The notes beneath the pieces were generated by a model. The model saw only the letters and a program-made list of their open reading frames with translations, made no database searches and was not told the DNA's origin. Below, one piece after another: positions 10,009 through 45,874 of a DNA stretch of 64,000 bases. The translations under genes and the position numbers were made by a program. The stretch covers positions 2,356,001 to 2,420,000 of the forward strand of contig JBNRSN020000094.1 of the NCBI GenBank assembly GCA_051313645.2, written 5' to 3'. The stretch is from Centroscyllium fabricii. Lineage: Eukaryota. How positions within the stretch are numbered: position 1 is the stretch's first letter; every line of letters starts with the position of its first letter.

Positions 10009-10930
10009 CGTATTATTGCGGCATTCATACATTTCATTTCGCCGTTTCGCCAACAGCAGTAAACCACCGTGCAGGCAGTTTTGCTCAGTATTTTATCACT
10101 TCTTCACCATTTCCTTCAGTTGTTATTGACAGGCAGATAGGATTTGCAGAATTTCCTCTGCTTCGGGTAATTGGCATGAACCCAGCACCGAGGACGACAA
10201 ACACCGCCACCCAAGCAACTCAATTCACACCGTTCACTCACTCGTCTCCACACTGGCTGCGTCTCAAGTCAGATATGTTGACATTTTTGGTTGTTGCATT
10301 TTTTGCAATCTAGCGACCAGGCTCGAACCTTTGCACAAGACGGAACACCGTTACACAACAGGAAGATGCTTACACAACAGTGAACAACTTTACATGGCAG
10401 GGAACATCTTTAAACAGCGGGGAATCCCTTTACACCGCCGAAAGCACCAAGGTGCAAGTCTCTGTCTTGCTCTCAGTCTCCATTGCCCTGTTTGCCTTTC
10501 TCTCTCCTCTTTTGATGTTGCCTTTCTCTCTCTCTCGCTCTCTGTTTCTCTCGCAGTCTCCTTCTTTCCCGCAGTCTCTCCCTCGTGTTATTCGGGCTTA
10601 GTGTGTGTGTCTCTCTCTGTCTGGTTTCCTCAGTGTCTTTCTCTGTTCCTCCCGTGTTGTGTCCTGCAATACGCTTGCTGTTTTTCGGTGTCTCATCATT
10701 GTGTGTCTCTCCCATGGTGTGTTAGGTGTAATACTGAGTGTCTTTGTGACATTGTGCAGCCATGTGAGCCTGCCAAGCCGGCTGATGTGGTGTCCGGGTC
10801 TCGGGGCTGTTTGAAGGTCGTGCTGTTGCTTTCAACACAGCCTGGATGCTGACAATTGTCTCGCTGACACCCAGCACTGTGACGCATCGCAAGCTAAACA
10901 GCAGCCGGGATGTGTTGGCAATCGACAGAC

Positions 10931-11002
10931 AGCAGAGTGGCGCAGCGGCAGCGTGCTGGGCCCATAACCCAGAGGTCGATGGATCGAAACCATCCTCTGC
11001 TA
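10931..11002 (+). tRNA. trnam-cau: tRNA-iMet(CAT), D-loop A>C variant
   Basis: iMet consensus with one substitution. Confidence 0.93.
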
Positions 11003-11647
11003 TTTGCATTCTTATTTCCAGCAAAGCTAAAAAAAACAGCTGTTGCTGCCCACAATCACATCGCGCTTCATTTTGTCACTCTGGACACATTACTGACACC
11101 AACTTCCTGGTTGAAATACACAACAGGGCAAATGATGAATTTTGCCCTGTCCCTGGGACTAGGGACAGGGCCACTTGCAAGGCTTGGAATCTAAGCAGAG
11201 CCAGGCCTGGTTAGTACTTGGAGGGGTGACCACCAGGCAATACTAGGTGCAGAAGGTCACGAAAGGAGCCCCGGGGAGGGGCGGTTGGCTGAAGATTGTC
11301 GGAATGATGGAAAGATGGAATAGCGGCGTGCACAGATGCAGCGGCTTTGCTGGACTCTTGGGAGCTTGCAAGATCACATTTCGTTGTTCATGTCCTTGTA
11401 CATTGTATAATGACAATAAAGTTGAATTATTATTATTATTATTATGGGTTGTTCCAACACACGTCTATTTATTAGTGTTGCCCTGTGAACACGTCGCTTC
11501 ATCTGATCCAGTGGGTTGCATCAGAAGCGAGTTTGCCCTCCCTCCCCACCCCCCCCCCCCGAATTATAAGTACCTTGCAAAAGACAGAGCAAGCCACATT
11601 TACATCAGCAGCTAGCAATTAAAGAACGGAAGATAGGGCCATCATGT

Positions 11648-11729
11648 GGTAGCGTGGCCGAGCGGTCTAAGGCGCTGGATTAAGGCTCCAGTCTCTTCGG
11701 GGGCGTGGGTTCGAATCCCACCGCTGCCA
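11648..11729 (+). tRNA. trnal-aag: tRNA-Leu(AAG)
   Basis: Consensus Leu-AAG sequence. Confidence 0.97.
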
Positions 11730-12651
11730 CGTATTATTGCGGCATTCATACATTTCATTTCGCCGTTTCACCAACAGCAGTAAACCACCGTGCAGGCAGT
11801 TTTGCTCAGTATTTTATCACTTCTTCACCATTTCCTTCAGTTGTTATTGACAGGCAGATAGGATTTGCAGAATTTCCTCTGCTTCGGGTAATTGGCATGA
11901 ACCCAGCACCGAGGACGACAAACACCGCCACCCAAGCAACTCAATTCACACCGTTCACTCACTCGTCTCCACACTGGCTGCGTCTCAAGTCAGATATGTT
12001 GACATTTTTGGTTGTTGCATTTTTTGCAATCTAGCGACCAGGCTCGAACCTTTGCACAAGACGGAACACCGTTACACAACAGGAAGATGCTTACACAACA
12101 GTGAACAACTTTACATGGCAGGGAACATCTTTAAACAGCGGGGAATCCCTTTACACCGCCGAAAGCACCAAGGTGCAAGTCTCTGTCTTGCTCTCAGTCT
12201 CCATTGCCCTGTTTGCCTTTCTCTCTCCTCTTTTGATGTTGCCTTTCTCTCTCTCTCGCTCTCTGTTTCTCTCGCAGTCTCCTTCTTTCCCGCAGTCTCT
12301 CCCTCGTGTTATTCGGGCTTAGTGTGTGTGTCTCTCTCTGTCTGGTTTCCTCAGTGTCTTTCTCTGTTCCTCCCGTGTTGTGTCCTGCAATACGCTTGCT
12401 GTTTTTCGGTGTCTCATCATTGTGTGTCTCTCCCATGGTGTGTTAGGTGTAATACTGAGTGTCTTTGTGACATTGTGCAGCCATGTGAGCCTGCCAAGCC
12501 GGCTGATGTGGTGTCCGGGTCTCGGGGCTGTTTGAAGGTCGTGCTGTTGCTTTCAACACAGCCTGGATGCTGACAATTGTCTCGCTGACACCCAGCACTG
12601 TGACGCATCGCAAGCTAAACAGCAGCCGGGATGTGTTGGCAATCGACAGAC

Positions 12652-12723
12652 AGCAGAGTGGCGCAGCGGAAGCGTGCTGGGCCCATAACCCAGAGGTCGA
12701 TGGATCGAAACCATCCTCTGCTA
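12652..12723 (+). tRNA. trnam-cau: tRNA-iMet(CAT)
   Basis: Consensus initiator tRNA sequence. Confidence 0.97.
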
Positions 12724-13362
12724 TTTGCATTCTTATTTCCAGCAAAGCTAAAAAAAACAGCTGTTGCTGCCCACAATCACATCGCGCTTCATTTTGTCAC
12801 TCTGGACACATTACTGACACCAACTTCCTGGTTGAAATACACAACAGGGCAAATGATGAATTTTGCCCTGTCCCTGGGACTAGGGACAGGGCCACTTGCA
12901 AGGCTTGGAATCTAAGCAGAGCCAGGCCTGGTTAGTACTTGGAGGGGTGACCACCAGGCAATAGTAGGTGCAGAAGGTCACGAAAGGAGCCCCGGGGAGG
13001 GGCGGTTGGCTGAAGATTGTCGGAATGATGGAAAGATGGAATAGCGGCGTGCACAGATGCAGCGGCTTTGCTGGACTCTTGGGAGCTTGCAAGATCACAT
13101 TTCGTTGTTCATGTACTTGTACATTGTATAATGACAATAAAGTTGAATTATTATTATTATTATTATGGGTTGTTCCAACACACGTCTATTTATTAGTGTT
13201 GCCCTGTGAACACGTCGCTTCATCTGATCCAGTGGGTTGCATCAGAAGCGAGTTTGCCCTCCCTCCCCCCCCCCCGAATTATAAGTACCTTGCAAAAGAC
13301 AGAGCAAGCCACATTTACATCAGCAGCTAGCAATTAAAGAACGGAAGATAGGGCCATCATGT

Positions 13363-13444
13363 GGTAGCGTGGCCGAGCGGTCTAAGGCGCTGGATTAAGG
13401 CTCCAGTCTCTTCGGGGGCGTGGGTTCGAATCCCACCGCTGCCA
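13363..13444 (+). tRNA. trnal-aag: tRNA-Leu(AAG)
   Basis: Consensus Leu-AAG sequence. Confidence 0.97.
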
Positions 13445-14338
13445 CGTATTATGGTGGCATTCATACATTTCATTTCGCCGTTTCACCAACAGCAGTAAAC
13501 CACCGTGCAGGCAGTTTTGCTCAGTATTTTATCACTTCTTCACCATTTCCTTCAGTTGTTATTGACAGGCAGATAGGATTTGCAGAATTTCCTCTGCTTC
13601 GGGTAATTGGCATGAACCCAGCACCGAGGACGACAAACACCGCCACCCAAGCAACTCAATTCACACCGTTCACTCACTCGTCTCCACACTGGCTGCGTCT
13701 CAAGTCAGATATGTTGACATTTTTGGTTGTTGCATTTTTTGCAATCTAGCGACCAGGCTCGAACCTTTGCACAAGACGGAACACCGTTACACAACAGGAA
13801 GATGCTTACACAACAGTGAACAACTTTACATGGCAGGGAACATCGTTAAACAGCGGGGAATCCCTTTACACCGCCGAAAGCACCAAGGTGCAAGTCTCTG
13901 TCTTGCTCTCAGTCTCCATTGCCCTGTTTGCCTTTCTCTCTCTCTCGCTCTCTGTTTCTCTCGCAGTCTCCTTCTTTCCCGCAGTCTCTCCCTCGTGTTA
14001 TTCGGGCTTAGTGTGTGTCTCTCTCTGTCTGGTTTCCTCAGTGTCTTTCTCTGTTCCTCCCGTGTTGTGTCCTGCAATACGCTTGCTGTTTTTCGGTGTC
14101 TCATCATTGTGTGTCTCTCCCATGGTGTGTTAGGTGTAATACTGAGTGTCTTTGTGACATTGTGCAGCCATGTGAGCCTGCCAAGCCGGCTGATGTGGTG
14201 TCCGGGTCTCGGGGCTGTTTGAAGGTCGTGCTGTTGCTTTCAACACAGCCTGGATGCTGACAATTGTCTCGCTGACACCCAGCACTGTGACGCATCGCAA
14301 GCTAAACAGCAGCCGGGATGTGTTGGCAATCGACAGAC

Positions 14339-14410
14339 AGCAGAGTGGCGCAGCGGAAGCGTGCTGGGCCCATAACCCAGAGGTCGATGGATCGAAACCA
14401 TCCTCTGCTA
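14339..14410 (+). tRNA. trnam-cau: tRNA-iMet(CAT)
   Basis: Consensus initiator tRNA sequence. Confidence 0.97.
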
Positions 14411-15050
14411 TTTGCATTCTTATTTCCAGCAAAGCTAAAAAAAACAGCTGTTGCTGCCCACAATCACATCGCGCTTCATTTTGTCACTCTGGACACATTA
14501 CTGACACCAACTTCCTGGTTGAAATACACAACAGGGCAAATGATGAATTTTGCCCTGTCCCTGGGACTAGGGACAGGGCCACTTGCAAGGCTTGGAATCT
14601 AAGCAGAGCCAGGCCTGGTTAGTACTTGGAGGGGTGACCACCAGGCAATACTAGGTGCAGAAGGTCACGAAAGGAGCCCCGGGGAGGGGCGGTTGGCTGA
14701 AGATTGTCGGAATGATGGAAAGATGGAATAGCGGCGTGCACAGATGCAGCGGCTTTGCTGGACTCTTGGGAGCTTGCAAGATCACATTTCGTTGTTCATG
14801 TACTTGTACATTGTATAATGACAATAAAGTTGAATTATTATTATTACTATTATGGGTTGTTCCAACACACGTCTATTTATTAGTGTTGCCCTGTGAACAC
14901 GTCGCTTCATCTGATCCAGTGGGTTGCATCAGAAGCGAGTTTGCCCTCCCTCCCCACCCCCCCGAATTATAAGTACCTTGCAAAAGACAGAGCAAGCCAC
15001 ATTTACATCAGCAGCTAGCAATTAAAGAACGGAAGATAGGGCCATCATGT

Positions 15051-15132
15051 GGTAGCGTGGCCGAGCGGTCTAAGGCGCTGGATTAAGGCTCCAGTCTCTT
15101 CGGGGGCGTGGATTCGAATCCCACAGCTGCCA
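15051..15132 (+). tRNA. trnal-aag: tRNA-Leu(AAG), G53A and C66A; B box damaged, possibly a pseudogene
   Basis: GTGGATTCGAATCCCACAGC. Confidence 0.78.
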
Positions 15133-16028
15133 CGTATTATTGCGGCATTCATACATTTCATTTCGCCGTTTCGCCAACAGCAGTAAACCACCGTGCAGGC
15201 AGTTTTGCTCAGTATTTTATCACTTCTTCACCATTTCCTTCAGTTGTTATTGACAGGCAGATAGGATTTGCAGAATTTCCTCTGCTTCGGGTAATTGGCA
15301 TGAACCCAGCACCGAGGACGACAAACACCGCCACCCAAGCAACTCAATTCACACCGTTCACTCACTCGTCTCCACACTGGCTGCGTCTCAAGTCAGATAT
15401 GTTGACATTTTTGGTTGTTGCATTTTTTGCAATCTAGCGACCAGGCTCGAACCTTTGCACAAGACGGAACACCGTTACACAACAGGAAGATGCTTACACA
15501 ACAGTGAACAACTTTACATGGCAGGGAACATCTTTAAACAGCGGGGAATCCCTTTACACCGCCGAAAGCACCAAGGTGCAAGTCTCTGTCTTGCTCTCAG
15601 TCTCCATTGCCCTGTTTGCCTTTCTCTCTCTCTCGCTCTCTGTTTCTCTCGCAGTCTCCTTCTTTCCCGCAGTCTCTCCCTCGTGTTATTCGGGCTTAGT
15701 GTGTGTGTCTCTCTCTGTCTGGTTTCCTCAGTGTCTTTCTCTGTTCCTCCCGTGTTGTGTCCTGCAATACGCTTGCTGTTTTTCGGTGTCTCATCATTGT
15801 GTGTCTCTCCCATGGTGTGTTAGGTGTAATACTGAGTGTCTTTGTGACATTGTGCAGCCATGTGAGCCTGCCAAGCCGGCTGATGTGGTGTCCGGGTCTC
15901 GGGGCTGTTTGAAGGTCGTGCTGTTGCTTTCAACACAGCCTGGATGCTGACAATTGTCTCGCTGACACCCAGCACTGTGACGCATCGCAAGCTAAACAGC
16001 AGCCGGGATGTGTTGGCAATCGACAGAC

Positions 16029-16100
16029 AGCAGAGTGGCGCAGCGGAAGCGTGCTGGGCCCATAACCCAGAGGTCGATGGATCGAAACCATCCTCTGCTA
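16029..16100 (+). tRNA. trnam-cau: tRNA-iMet(CAT)
   Basis: Consensus initiator tRNA sequence. Confidence 0.97.
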
Positions 16101-16744
16101 TTTGCATTCTTATTTCCAGCAAAGCTAAAAAAAACAGCTGTTGCTGCCCACAATCACATCGCGCTTCATTTTGTCACTCTGGACACATTACTGACACCAA
16201 CTTCCTGGTTGAAATACACAACAGGGCAAATGATGAATTTTGCCCTGTCCCTGGGACTAGGGACAGGGCCACTTGCAAGGCTTGGAATCTAAGCAGAGCC
16301 AGGCCTGGTTAGTACTTGGAGGGGTGACCACCAGGCAATACTAGGTGCAGAAGGTCACGAAAGGAGCCCCGGGGAGGGGCGGTTGGCTGAAGATTGTCGG
16401 AATGATGGAAAGATGGAATAGCGGCGTGCACAGATGCAGCGGCTTTGCTGGACTCTTGGGAGCTTGCAAGATCACATTTCGTTGTTCATGTCCTTGTACA
16501 TTGTATAATGACAATAAAGTTGAATTATTATTATTATTATTATGGGTTGTTCCAACACACGTCTATTTATTAGTGTTGCCCTGTGAACACGTCGCTTCAT
16601 CTGATCCAGTGGGTTGCATCAGAAGCGAGTTTGCCCTCCCTCCCCACCCCCCCCCCCGAATTATAAGTACCTTGCAAAAGACAGAGCAAGCCACATTTAC
16701 ATCAGCAGCTAGCAATTAAAGAACGGAAGATAGGGCCATCATGT

Positions 16745-16826
16745 GGTAGCGTGGCCGAGCGGTCTAAGGCGCTGGATTAAGGCTCCAGTCTCTTCGGGGG
16801 CGTGGGTTCGAATCCCACCGCTGCCA
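16745..16826 (+). tRNA. trnal-aag: tRNA-Leu(AAG)
   Basis: Consensus Leu-AAG sequence. Confidence 0.97.
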
Positions 16827-17722
16827 CGTATTATTGCGGCATTCATACATTTCATTTCGCCGTTTCACCAACAGCAGTAAACCACCGTGCAGGCAGTTTT
16901 GCTCAGTATTTTATCACTTCTTCACCATTTCCTTCAGTTGTTATTGACAGGCAGATAGGATTTGCAGAATTTCCTCTGCTTCGGGTAATTGGCATGAACC
17001 CAGCACCGAGGACGACAAACACCGCCACCCAAGCAACTCAATTCACACCGTTCACTCACTCGTCTCCACACTGGCTGCGTCTCAAGTCAGATATGTTGAC
17101 ATTTTTGGTTGTTGCATTTTTTGCAATCTAGCGACCAGGCTCGAACCTTTGCACAAGACGGAACACCGTTACACAACAGGAAGATGCTTACACAACAGTG
17201 AACAACTTTACATGGCAGGGAACATCTTTAAACAGCGGGGAATCCCTTTACACCGCCGAAAGCACCAAGGTGCAAGTCTCTGTCTTGCTCTCAGTCTCCA
17301 TTGCCCTGTTTGCCTTTCTCTCTCTCTCGCTCTCTGTTTCTCTCGCAGTCTCCTTCTTTCCCGCAGTCTCTCCCTCGTGTTATTCGGGCTTAGTGTGTGT
17401 GTCTCTCTCTGTCTGGTTTCCTCAGTGTCTTTCTCTGTTCCTCCCGTGTTGTGTCCTGCAATACGCTTGCTGTTTTTCGGTGTCTCATCATTGTGTGTCT
17501 CTCCCATGGTGTGTTAGGTGTAATACTGAGTGTCTTTGTGACATTGTGCAGCCATGTGAGCCTGCCAAGCCGGCTGATGTGGTGTCCGGGTCTCGGGGCT
17601 GTTTGAAGGTCGTGCTGTTGCTTTCAACACAGCCTGGATGCTGACAATTGTCTCGCTGACACCCAGCACTGTGACGCATCGCAAGCTAAACAGCAGCCGG
17701 GATGTGTTGGCAATCGACAGAC

Positions 17723-17794
17723 AGCAGAGTGGCGCAGCGGAAGCGTGCTGGGCCCATAACCCAGAGGTCGATGGATCGAAACCATCCTCTGCTA
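17723..17794 (+). tRNA. trnam-cau: tRNA-iMet(CAT)
   Basis: Consensus initiator tRNA sequence. Confidence 0.97.
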
Positions 17795-18434
17795 TTTGCA
17801 TTCTTATTTCCAGCAAAGCTAAAAAAAACAGCTGTTGCTGCCCACAATCACATCGCGCTTCATTTTGTCACTCTGGACACATTACTGACACCAACTTCCT
17901 GGTTGAAATACACAACAGGGCAAATGATGAATTTTGCCCTGTCCCTGGGACTAGGGACAGGGCCACTTGCAAGGCTTGGAATCTAAGCAGAGCCAGGCCT
18001 GGTTAGTACTTGGAGGGGTGACCACCAGGCAATACTAGGTGCAGAAGGTCACGAAAGGAGCCCCGGGGAGGGGCGGTTGGCTGAAGATTGTCGGAATGAT
18101 GGAAAGATGGAATAGCGGCGTGCACAGATGCAGCGGCTTTGCTGGACTCTTGGGAGCTTGCAAGATCACATTTCGTTGTTCATGTACTTGTACATTGTAT
18201 AATGACAATAAAGTTGAATTATTATTATTATTATTATGGGTTGTTCCAACACACGTCTATTTATTAGTGTTGCCCTGTGAACACGTCGCTTCATCTGATC
18301 CAGTGGGTTGCATCAGAAGCGAGTTTGCCCTCCCTCCCCACCCCCCCGAATTATAAGTACCTTGCAAAAGACAGAGCAAGCCACATTTACATCAGCAGCT
18401 AGCAATTAAAGAACGGAAGATAGGGCCATCATGT

Positions 18435-18516
18435 GGTAGCGTGGCCGAGCGGTCTAAGGTGCTGGATTAAGGCTCCAGTCTCTTCGGGGGCGTGGGTTCG
18501 AATCCCACCGCTGCCA
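18435..18516 (+). tRNA. trnal-aag: tRNA-Leu(AAG), C25T variant
   Basis: AAGGTGCTGG; D-stem wobble. Confidence 0.93.
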
Positions 18517-19412
18517 CGTATTATTGCGGCATTCATACATTTCATTTCGCCGTTTCGCCAACAGCAGTAAACCACCGTGCAGGCAGTTTTGCTCAGTATT
18601 TTATCACTTCTTCACCATTTCCTTCAGTTGTTATTGACAGGCAGATAGGATTTGCAGAATTTCCTCTGCTTCGGGTAATTGGCATGAACCCAGCACCGAG
18701 GACGACAAACACCGCCACCCAAGCAACTCAATTCACACCGTTCACTCACTCGTCTCCACACTGGCTGCGTCTCAAGTCAGATATGTTGACATTTTTGGTT
18801 GTTGCATTTTTTGCAATCTAGCGACCAGGCTCGAACCTTTGCACAAGACGGAACACCGTTACACAACAGGAAGATGCTTACACAACAGTGAACAACTTTA
18901 CATGGCAGGGAACATCTTTAAACAGCGGGGAATCCCTTTACACCGCCGAAAGCACCAAGGTGCAAGTCTCTGTCTTGCTCTCAGTCTCCATTGCCCTGTT
19001 TGCCTTTCTCTCTCTCTCGCTCTCTGTTTCTCTCGCAGTCTCCTTCTTTCCCGCAGTCTCTCCCTCGTGTTATTCGGGCTTAGTGTGTGTGTCTCTCTCT
19101 GTTTGGTTTCCTCAGTGTCTTTCTCTGTTCCTCCCGTGTTGTGTCCTGCAATACGCTTGCTGTTTTTCGGTGTCTCATCATTGTGTGTCTCTCCCATGGT
19201 GTGTTAGGTGTAATACTGAGTGTCTTTGTGACATTGTGCAGCCATGTGAGCCTGCCAAGCCGGCTGATGTGGTGTCCGGGTCTCGGGGCTGTTTGAAGGT
19301 CGTGCTGTTGCTTTCAACACAGCCTGGATGCTGACAATTGTCTCGCTGACACCCAGCACTGTGACGCATCGCAAGCTAAACAGCAGCCGGGATGTGTTGG
19401 CAATCGACAGAC

Positions 19413-19484
19413 AGCAGAGTGGCGCAGCGGAAGCGTGCTGGGCCCATAACCCAGAGGTCGATGGATCGAAACCATCCTCTGCTA
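19413..19484 (+). tRNA. trnam-cau: tRNA-iMet(CAT)
   Basis: Consensus initiator tRNA sequence. Confidence 0.97.
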
Positions 19485-20114
19485 TTTGCATTCTTATTTC
19501 CAGCAAAGCTAAAAAAAACAGCTGTTGCTGCCCACAATCACATCGCGCTTCATTTTGTCACTCTGGACACATTACTGACACCAACTTCCTGGTTGAAATA
19601 CACAACAGGGCAAATGATGAATTTTGCCCTGTCCCTGGGACTAGGGACAGGGCCACTTGCAAGGCTTGGAATCTAAGCAGAGCCAGGCCTGGTTAGTGCT
19701 TGGAGGGGTGACCACCAGGCAATACTAGGTGCAGAAGGTCACGAAAGGAGGGGCGGTTGGCTGAAGATTGTCGGAATGATGGAAAGATGGAATAGCGGCG
19801 TGCACAGATGCAGCGGCTTTGCTGGACTCTTGGGAGCTTGCAAGATCACATTTCGTTGTTCATGTACTTGTACATTGTATAATGACAATAAAGTTGAATT
19901 ATTATTATTATTATTATGGGTTGTTCCAACACACGTCTATTTATTAGTGTTGCCCTGTGAACACGTCGCTTCATCTGATCCAGTGGGTTGCATCAGAAGC
20001 GAGTTTGCCCTCCCTCCCCACCCCCCCGAATTATAAGTACCTTGCAAAAGACAGAGCAAGCCACATTTACATCAGCAGCTAGCAATTAAAGAACGGAAGA
20101 TAGGGCCATCATGT

Positions 20115-20196
20115 GGTAGCGTGGCCGAGCGGTCTAAGGCGCTGGATTAAGGCTCCAGTCTCTTCGGGGGTGTGGGTTCGAATCCCACCGCTGCCA
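20115..20196 (+). tRNA. trnal-aag: tRNA-Leu(AAG), C48T variant
   Basis: Leu-AAG consensus with one substitution. Confidence 0.92.
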
Positions 20197-21092
20197 CGTA
20201 TTATTGCGGCATTCATACATTTCATTTCGCCGTTTCACCAACAGCAGTAAACCACCGTGCAGGCAGTTTTGCTCAGTATTTTATCACTTCTTCACCATTT
20301 CCTTCAGTTGTTATTGACAGGCAGATAGGATTTGCAGAATTTCCTCTGCTTCGGGTAATTGGCATGAACCCAGCACCGAGGACGACAAACACCGCCACCC
20401 AAGCAACTCAATTCACACCGTTCACTCACTCGTCTCCACACTGGCTGCGTCTCAAGTCAGATATGTTGACATTTTTGGTTGTTGCATTTTTTGCAATCTA
20501 GCGACCAGGCTCGAACCTTTGCACAAGACGGAACACCGTTACACAACAGGAAGATGCTTACACAACAGTGAACAACTTTACATGGCAGGGAACATCGTTA
20601 AACAGCGGGGAATCCCTTTACACCGCCGAAAGCACCAAGGTGCAAGTCTCTGTCTTGCTCTCAGTCTCCATTGCCCTGTTTGCCTTTCTCTCTCTCTCGC
20701 TCTCTGTTTCTCTCGCAGTCTCCTTCTTTCCCGCAGTCTCTCCCTCGTGTTATTCGGGCTTAGTGTGTGTGTCTCTCTCTGTCTGGTTTCCTCAGTGTCT
20801 TTCTCTGTTCCTCCCGTGTTGTGTCCTGCAATACGCTTGCTGTTTTTCGGTGTCTCATCATTGTGTGTCTCTCCCATGGTGTGTTAGGTGTAATACTGAG
20901 TGTCTTTGTGACATTGTGCAGCCATGTGAGCCTGCCAAGCCGGCTGATGTGGTGTCCGGGTCTCGGGGCTGTTTGAAGGTCGTGCTGTTGCTTTCAACAC
21001 AGCCTGGATGCTGACAATTGTCTCGCTGACACCCAGCACTGTGACGCATCGCAAGCTAAACAGCAGCCGGGATGTGTTGGCAATCGACAGAC

Positions 21093-21164
21093 AGCAGAGT
21101 GGCGCAGCGGCAGCGTGCTGGGCCCATAACCCAGAGGTCGATGGATCGAAACCATCCTCTGCTA
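21093..21164 (+). tRNA. trnam-cau: tRNA-iMet(CAT), D-loop A>C variant
   Basis: iMet consensus with one substitution. Confidence 0.93.
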
Positions 21165-21812
21165 TTTGCATTCTTATTTCCAGCAAAGCTAAAAAAAACA
21201 GCTGTTGCTGCCCACAATCACATCGCGCTTCATTTTGTCACTCTGGACACATTACTGACACCAACTTCCTGGTTGAAATACACAACAGGGCAAATGATGA
21301 ATTTTGCCCTGTCCCTGGGACTAGGGACAGGGCCACTTGCAAGGCTTGGAATCTAAGCAGAGCCAGGCCTGGTTAGTACTTGGAGGGGTGACCACCAGGC
21401 AATACTAGGTGCAGAAGGTCACGAAAGGAGCCCCGGGGAGGGGCGGTTGGCTGAAGATTGTCGGAATGATGGAAAGATGGAATAGCGGCGTGCACAGATG
21501 CAGCGGCTTTGCTGGACTCTTGGGAGCTTGCAAGATCACATTTCGTTGTTCATGTCCTTGTACATTGTATAATGACAATAAAGTTGAATTATTATTATTA
21601 TTATTATGGGTTGTTCCAACACACGTCTATTTATTAGTGTTGCCCTGTGAACACGTCGCTTCATCTGATCCAGTGGGTTGCATCAGAAGCGAGTTTGCCC
21701 TCCCTCCCCACCCCCCCCCCCCCCCGAATTATAAGTACCTTGCAAAAGACAGAGCAAGCCACATTTACATCAGCAGCTAGCAATTAAAGAACGGAAGATA
21801 GGGCCATCATGT

Positions 21813-21894
21813 GGTAGCGTGGCCGAGCGGTCTAAGGCGCTGGATTAAGGCTCCAGTCTCTTCGGGGGCGTGGGTTCGAATCCCACCGCTGCCA
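21813..21894 (+). tRNA. trnal-aag: tRNA-Leu(AAG)
   Basis: Consensus Leu-AAG sequence. Confidence 0.97.
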
Positions 21895-22816
21895 CGTATT
21901 ATTGCGGCATTCATACATTTCATTTCGCCGTTTCACCAACAGCAGTAAACCACCGTGCAGGCAGTTTTGCTCAGTATTTTATCACTTCTTCACCATTTCC
22001 TTCAGTTGTTATTGACAGGCAGATAGGATTTGCAGAATTTCCTCTGCTTCGGGTAATTGGCATGAACCCAGCACCGAGGACGACAAACACCGCCACCCAA
22101 GCAACTCAATTCACACCGTTCACTCACTCGTCTCCACACTGGCTGCGTCTCAAGTCAGATATGTTGACATTTTTGGTTGTTGCATTTTTTGCAATCTAGC
22201 GACCAGGCTCGAACCTTTGCACAAGACGGAACACCGTTACACAACAGGAAGATGCTTACACAACAGTGAACAACTTTACATGGCAGGGAACATCTTTAAA
22301 CAGCGGGGAATCCCTTTACACCGCCGAAAGCACCAAGGTGCAAGTCTCTGTCTTGCTCTCAGTCTCCATTGCCCTGTTTGCCTTTCTCTCTCCTCTTTTG
22401 ATGTTGCCTTTCTCTCTCTCTCGCTCTCTGTTTCTCTCGCAGTCTCCTTCTTTCCCGCAGTCTCTCCCTCGTGTTATTCGGGCTTAGTGTGTGTGTCTCT
22501 CTCTGTCTGGTTTCCTCAGTGTCTTTCTCTGTTCCTCCCGTGTTGTGTCCTGCAATACGCTTGCTGTTTTTCGGTGTCTCATCATTGTGTGTCTCTCCCA
22601 TGGTGTGTTAGGTGTAATACTGAGTGTCTTTGTGACATTGTGCAGCCATGTGAGCCTGCCAAGCCGGCTGATGTGGTGTCCGGGTCTCGGGGCTGTTTGA
22701 AGGTCGTGCTGTTGCTTTCAACACAGCCTGGATGCTGACAATTGTCTCGCTGACACCCAGCACTGTGACGCATCGCAAGCTAAACAGCAGCCGGGATGTG
22801 TTGGCAATCGACAGAC

Positions 22817-22888
22817 AGCAGAGTGGCGCAGCGGAAGCTTGCTGGGCCCATAACCCAGAGGTCGATGGATCGAAACCATCCTCTGCTA
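22817..22888 (+). tRNA. trnam-cau: tRNA-iMet(CAT), G24T D-stem variant
   Basis: GGAAGCTTGCTGGG. Confidence 0.88.
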
Positions 22889-23528
22889 TTTGCATTCTTA
22901 TTTCCAGCAAAGCTAAAAAAAACAGCTGTTGCTGCCCACAATCACATCGCGCTTCATTTTGTCACTCTGGACACATTACTGACACCAACTTCCTGGTTGA
23001 AATACACAACAGGGCAAATGATGAATTTTGCCCTGTCCCTGGGACTAGGGACAGGGCCACTTGCAAGGCTTGGAATCTAAGCAGAGCCAGGCCTGGTTAG
23101 TACTTGGAGGGGTGACCACCAGGCAATAGTAGGTGCAGAAGGTCACGAAAGGAGCCCCGGGGAGGGGCGGTTGGCTGAAGATTGTCGGAATGATGGAAAG
23201 ATGGAATAGCGGCGTGCACAGATGCAGCGGCTTTGCTGGACTCTTGGGAGCTTGCAAGATCACATTTCGTTGTTCATGTACTTGTACATTGTATAATGAC
23301 AATAAAGTTGAATTATTATTATTATTATTATGGGTTGTTCCAACACACGTCTATTTATTAGTGTTGCCCTGTGAACACGTCGCTTCATCTGATCCAGTGG
23401 GTTGCATCAGAAGCGAGTTTGCCCTCCCTCCCCACCCCCCCGAATTATAAGTACCTTGCAAAAGACAGAGCAAGCCACATTTACATCAGCAGCTAGCAAT
23501 TAAAGAACGGAAGATAGGGCCATCATGT

Positions 23529-23610
23529 GGTAGCGTGGCCGAGCGGTCTAAGGCGCTGGATTAAGGCTCCAGTCTCTTCGGGGGCGTGGGTTCGAATCCC
23601 ACAGCTGCCA
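23529..23610 (+). tRNA. trnal-aag: tRNA-Leu(AAG), C66A variant
   Basis: Leu-AAG consensus with acceptor-stem mismatch. Confidence 0.9.
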
Positions 23611-43193: not shown

Positions 43194-43833
43194 TTTGCAT
43201 TCTTATTTCCAGCAAAGCTAAAAAAAACAGCTGTTGCTGCCCACAATCACATCGCGCTTCATTTTGTCACTCTGGACACATTACTGACACCAACTTCCTG
43301 GTTGAAATACACAACAGGGCAAATGATGAATTTTGCCCTGTCCCTGGGACTAGGGACAGGGCCACTTGCAAGGCTTGGAATCTAAGCAGAGCCAGGCCTG
43401 GTTAGTACTTGGAGGGGTGACCACCAGGCAATACTAGGTGCAGAAGGTCACGAAAGGAGCCCCGGGGAGGGGCGGTTGGCTGAAGATTGTCGGAATGATG
43501 GAAAGATGGAATAGCGGCGTGCACAGATGCAGCGGCTTTGCTGGACTCTTGGGAGCTTGCAAGATCACATTTCGTTGTTCATGTACTTGTACATTGTATA
43601 ATGACAATAAAGTTGAATTATTATTATTATTATTATGGGTTGTTCCAACACACGTCTATTTATTAGTGTTGCCCTGTGAACACGTCGCTTCATCTGATCC
43701 AGTGGGTTGCATCAGAAGCGAGTTTGCCCTCCCTCCCCACCCCCCCGAATTATAAGTACCTTGCAAAAGACAGAGCAAGCCACATTTACATCAGCAGCTA
43801 GCAATTAAAGAACGGAAGATAGGGCCATCATGT

Positions 43834-43915
43834 GGTAGCGTGGCCGAGCAGTCTAAAGCGCTGGATTAAGGCTCCAGTCTCTTCGGGGGCGTGGGTTCGA
43901 ATCCCACCGCTGCCA
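43834..43915 (+). tRNA. trnal-aag: tRNA-Leu(AAG), G18A (A box) and D-stem G>A; insertion immediately downstream; possibly a pseudogene
   Basis: TGGCCGAGCAGTCTAAAGCG. Confidence 0.78.
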
Positions 43916-43926
43916 CGTATTATTGC
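43915..43926. repeat. Target-site duplication, left copy (ACGTATTATTGC)
   Basis: Repeated at 44266-44277; single copy in the uninterrupted units. Confidence 0.92.
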
Positions 43927-44016
43927 CATAATGTGGAGGTGCCGGTGTTGGACTGGGGTGGACAAATGCAAAAAGTCACACAACACCAGGTTTATAGTCC
44001 AACGTTTTATTTTAAA

Positions 44017-44054
44017 TCACAAGCTTTCGGAGCGTCGCTCCTTCGTCAAGGTGA
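44017..44054 (-). ncRNA. Minimal type I hammerhead-ribozyme-like motif (minus-strand copy)
   Basis: Reverse complement reads TCAC-CTTGACGA-A-GGAGC-GAC-GCTCC-GAAA-GCTT-GTGA. Confidence 0.62.
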
Positions 44055-44187
44055 ACAGAGAGAGACTGAACTTAAACATCACACATCAGGGGAGGGGAGA
44101 AATCCGATCTCTTACATGTGAGATGTGTAAGAGATCGGATTTCTCCCCTCCCCTGATGTGTGATATTTAAGTTCAGTCTCTCTCTGT

Positions 44188-44225
44188 TCACCTTGACGAA
44201 GGAGCGACGCTCCGAAAGCTTGTGA
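44188..44225 (+). ncRNA. Minimal type I hammerhead-ribozyme-like motif (plus-strand copy)
   Basis: Helix I TCAC/GTGA; core C(T)TGACGA; helix II GGAGC/GCTCC; GAAA; palindromic AAGCTT in place of helix III; one extra T in the core. Confidence 0.62.
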
Positions 44226-44265
44226 TTTAAAATAAAACGTTGGACTATAAACCTGGTGTTGTGTG

Positions 44266-44277
44266 ACGTATTATTGC
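44266..44277. repeat. Target-site duplication, right copy
   Basis: ACGTATTATTGC; first 2 nt overlap the end of the inverted repeat. Confidence 0.92.
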
Positions 44278-45162
44278 GGCATTCATACATTTCATTTCGC
44301 CGTTTCACCAACAGCAGTAAACCACCGTGCAGGCAGTTTTGCTCAGTATTTTATCACTTCTTCACCATTTCCTTCAGTTGTTATTGACAGGCAGATAGGA
44401 TTTGCAGAATTTCCTCTGCTTCGGGTAATTGGCATGAACCCAGCACCGAGGACGACAAACACCGCCACCCAAGCAACTCAATTCACACCGTTCACTCACT
44501 CGTCTCCACACTGGCTGCGTCTCAAGTCAAATATGTTGACATTTTTGGTTGTTGCATTTTTTGCAATCTAGCGACCAGGCTCGAACCTTTGCACAAGACG
44601 GAACACCGTTACACAACAGGAAGATGCTTACACAACAGTGAACAACTTTACATGGCAGGGAACATCTTTACACAGCGGGGAATCCCTTTACACCGCCGAA
44701 AGCACCAAGGTGCAAGTCTCTGTCTTGCTCTCAGTCTCCATTGCCCTGTTTGCCTTTCTCTCTCTCTCGCTCTCTGTTTCTCTCGCAGTCTCCTTCTTTC
44801 CCGCAGTCTGTCCCTCGTGTTATTCGGGCTTAGTGTGTGTGTCTCTCTCTGTCTGGTTTCCTCAGTGTCTTTCTCTGTTCCTCCCGTGTTGTGTCCTGCA
44901 ATACGCTTGCTGTTTTTCGGTGTCTCATCATTGTGTGTCTCTCCCATGGTGTGTTAGGTGTAATACTGAGTGTCTTTGTGACATTGTGCAGCCATGTGAG
45001 CCTGCCAAGCCGGCTGATGTGGTGTCCGGGTCTCGGGGCTGTTTGAAGGTCGTGCTGTTGCTTTCAACACAGCCTGGATGCTGACAATTGTCTCGCTGAC
45101 ACCCAGCACTGTGACGCATCGCAAGCTAAACAACAGCCGGGATGTGTTGGCAATCGACAGAC

Positions 45163-45234: not shown

Positions 45235-45874
45235 TTTGCATTCTTATTTCCAGCAAAGCTAAAAAAAACAGCTGTTGCTGCCCACAATCACATCGCGCTT
45301 CATTTTGTCACTCTGGACACATTACTGACACCAACTTCCTGGTTGAAATACACAACAGGGCAAATGATGAATTTTGCCCTGTCCCTGGGACTAGGGACAG
45401 GGCCACTTGCAAGGCTTGGAATCTAAGCAGAGCCAGGCCTGGTTAGTACTTGGAGGGGTGACCACCAGGCAATACTAGGTGCAGAAGGTCAGGAAAGGAG
45501 CCCCGGGGAGGGGCGGTTGGCTGAAGATTGTCGGAATGATGGAAAGATGGAATAGCGGCGTGCACAGATGCAGCGGCTTTGCTGGACTCTTGGGAGCTTG
45601 CAAGATCACATTTCGTTGTTCATGTACTTGTACATTGTATAATGACAATAAAGTTGAATTATTATTATTATTATTATGGGTTGTTCCAACACACGTCTAT
45701 TTATTAGTGTTGCCCTGTGAACACGTCGCTTCATCTGATCCAGTGGGTTGCATCAGAAGCGAGTTTGCCCTCCCTCCCCACCCCCCCGAATTATAAGTAC
45801 CTTGCAAAAGACAGAGCAAGCCACATTTACATCAGCAGCTAGCAATTAAAGAACGGAAGATGGGGCCATCATGT

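Follow-up and report, generated by a model that had tools for sequence, protein, structure and literature searches.

A 341-nt insertion in a tRNA gene array of Centroscyllium fabricii: probably a truncated Penelope-like element with head-to-head arms

An inverted, 5'-truncated copy with a tail of 30-40 bp at one end is typical of Penelope-like elements (PLEs; PMC8557442). For some of these elements, inverted pLTRs have been described together with target duplications of 9 and 10 bp, a 31-bp tail and palindromes at the head-to-head junction, and self-priming has been proposed as their source (PMC3846280). PLEs can also carry dual minimal hammerhead ribozymes (min-HHRs), one on each strand and separated by 100-700 bp (PMC4209133). 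In work with a purified PLE protein, both strands were nicked and extended, ATT was preferred, and synthesis started at two internal sites, which mark the limits of the tail (PMC11167929). The origin of the inverted arms and of the one-sided tail has been called unresolved (PMC8557442; PMC11167929). Retrozymes are also derived from PLEs, but they are arranged head to tail (bioRxiv 10.64898/2026.07.22.740005). In the whale shark, expanded Penelope-like elements have been reported (10.1101/443036).

The window, the whole 64-kb stretch of DNA analysed here, is a homogeneous tandem array from end to end. Its units are about 1690 bp long and each contains a tRNA-Met and a tRNA-Leu gene. One unit is 2041 nt long instead of 1690, because 341 nt of foreign sequence and a 10-bp target duplication add 351 bp. 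The features of this site are as follows.

43834..43915, plus strand: host tRNA-Leu(AAG), directly upstream of the insertion, with G>A at 43850 and at 43857.
43917..43926, plus strand: left copy of the target duplication (12 bp from 43915 when the 2-nt AC overlap is included); present once in empty units, the exact 10-mer at 33 of 37 sites.
43927..43974, minus strand: unpaired 3' extension of 48 nt, read as a PLE tail; its outer end is a conserved family boundary.
43975..44116, minus strand: left arm, 142 nt, read as a 5'-truncated pLTR in sense orientation on this strand and continuous with the tail.
44017..44054, minus strand: minimal type I hammerhead motif, left copy, after the grammar of PMC4209133 (Fig. 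S3).
44117..44125, no strand: unpaired spacer, 9 nt.
44126..44267, plus strand: right arm, 142 nt, inverted, read as a 5'-truncated pLTR without tail, in sense orientation on this strand.
44188..44225, plus strand: minimal type I hammerhead motif, right copy; its minimum-energy structure in isolation consists of helices I and II.
44268..44277, plus strand: right copy of the target duplication, after which the array resumes in the same orientation.

The arms differ at a single base pair (44077, a C, against 44165). Lengths of tail, arms and spacer, the mismatch, the duplication and the 351-bp total had been given in an earlier reading of the sequence alone, and recomputation reproduced them exactly. 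The two copies of the duplicated 10-mer, GTATTATTGC, start at 43917 and 44268. The duplication extends to 12 nt if the AC common to the arm end is counted, 7 of its 10 bases are A or T, and ATT occurs in it twice. A 6-nt palindrome, ACATGT (44114-44119), spans the end of the left arm and is a candidate for a microhomology or a snap-back point. Between the tail and the outer arm we also noted a short stem (43950-43957 with 43996-44003), both stretches of which are well conserved in relatives; it is a candidate stem-loop at the RT start sites.

The insert is the sole copy within the window and its only long inverted repeat: all 206 of the window's 20-mers whose reverse complement is also present fall in 43975-44267. 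The folding energy of the hairpin is -279.5 kcal/mol (z -43 relative to 100 shuffles), and the DNA hairpin, calculated at -180.8 kcal/mol, should in principle be very stable. Spacer, arm and tail taken as a single strand are as stable as shuffled sequence (z -0.16), which lends no support to an overall structure beyond local helices. The two open frames of the insert, of 79 and 64 codons, match no Pfam family and leave it without a coding remnant, in keeping with the claim that there is no credible ORF.

We interpret the insert, with considerable confidence, as a recent, dead-on-arrival, truncated insertion of an EN+ Penelope-like element. It would consist of two pLTR segments head to head, with their 3' ends outward. 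The head-to-head junction was most likely made during integration. Membership among the PLEs is suggested by non-coding signatures: a minimal type I hammerhead motif in the pLTR, a one-sided tail that ends at a family boundary, an inverted 5'-truncated join and an AT-rich duplication of about 8-10 bp. Inverted truncated insertions of Penelope/Poseidon and Neptune (PMC3846280; PMC8557442; PMC2377424) share the head-to-head pLTRs, the one-sided tail, a 9-10-bp duplication, the junction palindrome and the AT-rich target. The insert differs from them in that no coding sequence lies between its arms and in that its unpaired end measures 48 nt, which exceeds the published 30-40 and counts against the PLE reading. 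The best reading is that of a known PLE insertion structure reduced to its smallest form.

Two quite different kinds of object would also look like a short palindrome. The first is a MITE, or a fold-back DNA transposon, with 142-bp terminal inverted repeats. Like MITEs, the insert is short, lacks an ORF, and has long inverted repeats and a target duplication of 10 bp. However, inverted repeats of MITEs abut the duplication at both ends, whereas here the left repeat stops 48 nt away from the duplication, which makes the repeats non-terminal. The hammerhead grammar, the one-sided tail, the variable arm lengths and the many relatives that show a single end likewise argue against a MITE, which we consider very improbable. 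The second is an artefact of sequencing or assembly, since perfect palindromes are a known artefact of sequencing reads. Yet the flanks stay in direct orientation, unlike those of a fold-back read. The site also has a target duplication, what is inserted does not derive from the array, there is one mismatch between the arms, and relatives show the same asymmetry. An artefact is hardly credible on these grounds.

The grammar of the ribozyme motif, which is that of metazoan PLE pLTRs, was taken from PMC4209133. Each arm contains one minimal type I hammerhead of the PLE kind, with a helix I of 4 bp, a helix II of 5 bp, then GAAA, a 2-nt palindrome that replaces helix III, and UU. The core, CUUGACGA in the left copy, has one base too many in each arm. 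A strict core descriptor finds nothing on either strand of the 64 kb. A relaxed core that allows one extra base, chosen after inspection of the sequence, finds exactly two matches on the two strands, one per arm. With this relaxed core, dinucleotide shuffles of an arm give any motif in 3 of 3000 cases and an equally good one in none of 3000. A 65-nt region folds unaided into helices I and II. Rfam lists 25 matches at E up to 10 for 43800-44400, none of them a hammerhead. Apart from tRNA, they score below the gathering score, the best ones mirror the palindrome, and matches to microRNAs are sub-threshold; a single arm gives no Rfam match.

Comparison with the dual min-HHRs of Schistosoma and bracovirus PLEs (PMC4209133, Fig. 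S4A) shows the same placement on opposite strands, here 142 bp apart. A U-rich flank, a short helix I, an extra base before helix II, the 2-nt palindrome and an AU-rich 3' flank are also shared with the min-HHRs of that paper. Differences are the one extra base beside C3/U4 and the vertebrate host. Natural insertions beside C3 impair hammerhead cleavage (PMC3088659), and minimal hammerheads work as dimers, which requires a partner on the same strand (PMC4209133). The inverted pair supplies no such partner. In a full palindromic transcript, a predicted 142-bp duplex would lock the ribozyme inside. Because of the extra core base, the missing same-strand partner and the duplex, the ribozyme of this copy is probably inactive. 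Together with the absence of an ORF, the altered core makes the insert most likely inert.

Non-LTR retrozymes (bioRxiv 10.64898/2026.07.22.740005) resemble the insert in being short, non-coding, PLE-derived and equipped with a type I hammerhead. Their units are arranged in head-to-tail tandems, and their ribozymes, which share a strand, can dimerise, whereas the insert is an inverted pair that occurs once in the window. Neither head-to-tail units nor complete same-strand hammerheads are found in it.

We searched for relatives through spurious gene predictions in protein collections, as a proxy for copies in eukaryotic DNA. The 79-codon frame led to proteins P0001 and P0002-P0004, and the 64-codon frame led to P0033. 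P0002 (5143 aa), an unrelated protein with a repeat-driven match, was removed before all counts. A profile built from the 79-codon frame, P0001 and parts of P0003 and P0004 matched 30 proteins among 41 candidates, 28 with E < 0.005, two of these being seeds. All 32 short proteins align with the tail and the outer arm, and none of 34 proteins contains a Pfam family. The terminus of the insert, we assume, resembles repeats of shark genomes. Many spurious ORFs from this repeat sit in protein collections, and back-translation can expose DNA palindromes among them where a DNA collection is lacking.

These relatives define where the family ends. In 23 proteins anchored on an LD motif, conservation is strong back to the codon of 43930 (D or E in 17 of 19) and partial at the codon of 43927 (H or Y in 9 of 19). 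Upstream there is none, the top residue occurring at most 5 times in 15-19. Since conservation begins at the codon that matches 43927, the end of the insert as set by the duplication is also the end of the family. The family is dispersed, with flanks that are unrelated from one relative to the next.

Relatives are known as amino-acid translations from other sources and apparently belong to sister subfamilies. P0033 alone has the tail frame of the insert, and 23 of 32 relatives read LKSNRF where the insert reads IVQRF. Two peculiarities of the insert, a +1/-1 change that compensates itself and the extra base of the core, occur in both arms and have no counterpart in the relatives. At the family level the sequences follow the hammerhead grammar, from which the insert itself deviates by one core base. 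In GTDB, a 16-nt arm pattern hit 117 loci against about 278 expected by chance, with none extending past 25 nt, and plasmid and phage collections gave no match to the insert. A literature search in which subscription papers, Repbase and Dfam were scarcely represented found neither a published palindromic non-autonomous PLE family nor a shark-specific description.

For each protein we asked whether a DNA able to fold back could encode it. This was possible for four of the 32 (z 18.2, 15.7, 11.8 and 4.5; scores reached by none of 300, 120, 300 and 120 shuffles, respectively), while the remaining 28 have z of at most 2.0. In P0014, for example, 17 of 19 residue pairs are exactly compatible with a fold-back, against a null mean of 3.4. 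Seven of the 30 proteins caught by the anchor were long enough to assess, and the four fold-backs are among these seven; P0026 and P0033, missed by the anchor, show no fold-back. Short fold-back copies therefore appear common in the family, to the extent that translations can tell. The inner ends of the left arms lie at positions equivalent to 44051, 44057, 44006 and 43996 of the window, compared with 44116 in the insert, and the spacers measure 7, 11, 12 and 45 nt instead of 9. Fold-back anatomy with a variable junction is thus found in the insert and four relatives. A stop just past the core ends many relatives (K stands there in 15 of 26 anchored proteins, and most stop), and junctions as far in as 44116 are consequently invisible to this test.

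In two of the fold-backs both strands fix the core. P0030 has the canonical C3-G8 pair (CUGACGA) and P0014 the covariant U3-A8 pair (UUGAUAA), a core variant that has already been published. This covariation is suggestive, with one case each and possible CpG decay in P0014. In P0028 and P0022, whose right arms end within the protein, about 36-37 nt up to the tail end have no counterpart in the right arm (a 1-nt indel between subfamilies may shift the figure), in agreement with the published tail of 30-40 bp; unrelated flank follows the arm. With an unpaired part of 48 nt against about 36-37, the second arm of the insert is about 12 nt shorter than in these two relatives. In P0012 and P0015 the unrelated flank is reached about 12 nt further out than the arm end of the insert, roughly where P0022 and P0028 have the end of their right arms. 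This point is probably the usual tail-less end of the family.

The four junctions bear directly on an alternative, a non-autonomous hairpin family derived from a PLE, which has a fixed junction and is copied as a unit in trans by the PLE protein. Near-perfect arms fit such a family, as do the +1/-1 change and the extra core base common to both arms, as a diverged non-coding donor would lead one to expect; non-autonomous derivatives of PLEs do exist (PMC8557442; bioRxiv 10.64898/2026.07.22.740005). However, the four related fold-backs have four different junctions, none of which is that of the insert, and the published non-autonomous derivatives are head-to-tail tandems (bioRxiv 10.64898/2026.07.22.740005). 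Frames that cover the inner arm or the junction have no credible protein match, a weak point against the family as the host genome may be absent from the collection. A full transcript would also bury the ribozyme in the 142-bp duplex.

Transcription is a further obstacle, the nearest promoter being that of the tRNA-Leu gene. Pol III terminates at T runs. The first T4 run downstream of tRNA-Leu lies 70 nt away in an empty unit and 89 nt away in the filled one, where it is inside the left arm (44005). Hence this promoter should not yield hairpin RNA. Taken together, a fixed-junction hairpin family is unlikely. We are equally doubtful about a young, ORF-less palindrome subfamily of PLEs with a fixed ACATGT junction and a non-canonical core. 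If it were real, it would correspond to MITEs but move by retro-mobilisation, and it would scatter 140-bp hairpins, and with them cruciforms and sources of small RNA, through the genome.

The sequence-only reading had proposed a PLE origin, a tail and a hammerhead, all of which gain support from the grammar, the shared terminus and the fold-back relatives. It had also suggested an undescribed hairpin family, and this part is not supported: the four related fold-backs differ in junction and spacer, and the architecture is in print (PMC4209133; PMC3846280; PMC8557442). That reading itself had named a spacer junction unique to this copy as evidence against its proposal, and at the family level each of the four fold-back relatives does have a junction of its own.

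How could a truncated PLE insertion acquire two arms and one tail? We propose that an RT/GIY-YIG protein encoded elsewhere cuts the AT-rich trailer of tRNA-Leu with one nick per strand, the two nicks being 10-12 bp apart. The nick in the top strand would prime cDNA from the outer RT start site and produce the tail and the left arm. The nick in the bottom strand would prime cDNA from the inner start site and produce the right arm without a tail. Both cDNAs would stop early, and their ends would be joined through a few paired bases at ACATGT. Nine nucleotides of the longer cDNA would be left as the spacer, and fill-in would create the target duplication. Read outward from the nicks, both halves have the cDNA strand, the top one beginning at the tail end and the bottom one 48 nt further in. 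These two starting points are what two primings at two start sites are expected to leave. We regard this two-nick route as slightly better than an even bet.

Alternatively, a PLE cDNA may have made the second arm itself, by snap-back self-priming (3 bp closing a 9-nt loop) and a later endonuclease cut, or by self-priming on an antisense template (PMC3846280). Spacers are loop-sized in four of five cases (7, 9, 11 and 12 nt), a palindrome sits at the junction, and self-priming has been proposed before in the paper just cited. Snap-back also explains the shared oddities of the arms better: a single round of twin priming on an intact donor does not account for changes common to both arms, and a diverged donor, snap-back copying or conversion between arms is needed. 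A diverged donor accounts for them under either route. Against snap-back, the second arm would end near the inner site only after an additional precise cut, the spacer of one relative measures 45 nt, and in vitro the protein extends both strands and has two start sites (PMC11167929). We treat snap-back as a tentative possibility, below even. Our literature search found no paper on twin priming with Penelope.

As a single copy the insert is of little consequence: it is dead and affects one tRNA unit among many redundant ones, and this redundancy is probably why it is tolerated. Its modest value lies in being a clean specimen, with 36 empty sister sites and both ends intact. A genome-wide set of such minimal PLE insertions could separate two-nick from snap-back priming computationally. 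Such copies are also easily misannotated as MITEs or as microRNA hairpins.

The insert begins 11 nt past the tRNA-Leu gene. Because the site lies directly 3' of tRNA-Leu, and 37 copies of this gene are in the window, 37 sites can be assayed. One of them is filled and the other 36 run on with empty-site sequence. The earlier count of one in 38 units was right about the single filled unit, but 38 is the number of tRNA-Met-type genes. The duplication starts 2 nt after the end of tRNA-Leu, as one would expect of a lineage with 3' flanks of tRNA genes as its target. However, this is a single event, the flanks of the relatives are mutually unrelated, and the site is merely AT-rich (17% of the unit's 10-mers are equally so). 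Such targeting is very unlikely. We also considered the tRNA-targeting Dada DNA transposons and rejected them: they insert inside the gene, make 6-7-bp duplications and were reportedly not found in elasmobranchs (PMC8869645).

The sequence-only reading called the element very young. An arm divergence of 0.7% (95% CI 0.02-3.9%) is compatible with this, beside a mean pairwise divergence of 0.46% (7.7 substitutions per pair) between the 37 complete units. Youth is not demonstrated by it, as conversion between the arms could mask age. The host unit has 6 substitutions relative to the consensus, 3 of them private, and units range from 1 to 9. Its divergence is thus nothing unusual, so the insertion does not predate the turnover of the array, unless conversion has reset the unit.

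In the host tRNA-Leu, G>A at 43850 is private and affects gene position 17 in the A box, which we take to be the conserved G18 in tRNA numbering. G>A at 43857 lies in the D stem and is common to two other, nearby units. At least one variant is carried by 21 of the 37 tRNA-Leu copies.

Some further features of the array deserve mention. A decayed 5S rRNA-like segment lies between the tRNAs, at the same place in each unit (45369-45490 in the one unit examined with Rfam; RF00001, E 0.013, 25.9 bits where the gathering score is 38). It is a 5S pseudogene or the head of a 5S-derived SINE, co-amplified with the unit. Positions 7489-21092 and 21093-34693 form a higher-order duplication of about eight units (13.6 kb), in which unit lengths recur in order and most paired units are 0-1 substitutions apart. 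ARAGORN finds 75 tRNA genes in the window: 37 Met(CAT), 37 Leu(AAG) and one with a CGT anticodon at a Met position. These tRNAs look vertebrate to us, and we assume that the tRNA-Met(CAT) is of the initiator type. The exceptional tRNA-Met copy (24533-24604), which has CGT for CAT and is called tRNA-Thr by ARAGORN, is either a point variant or a sequencing error.
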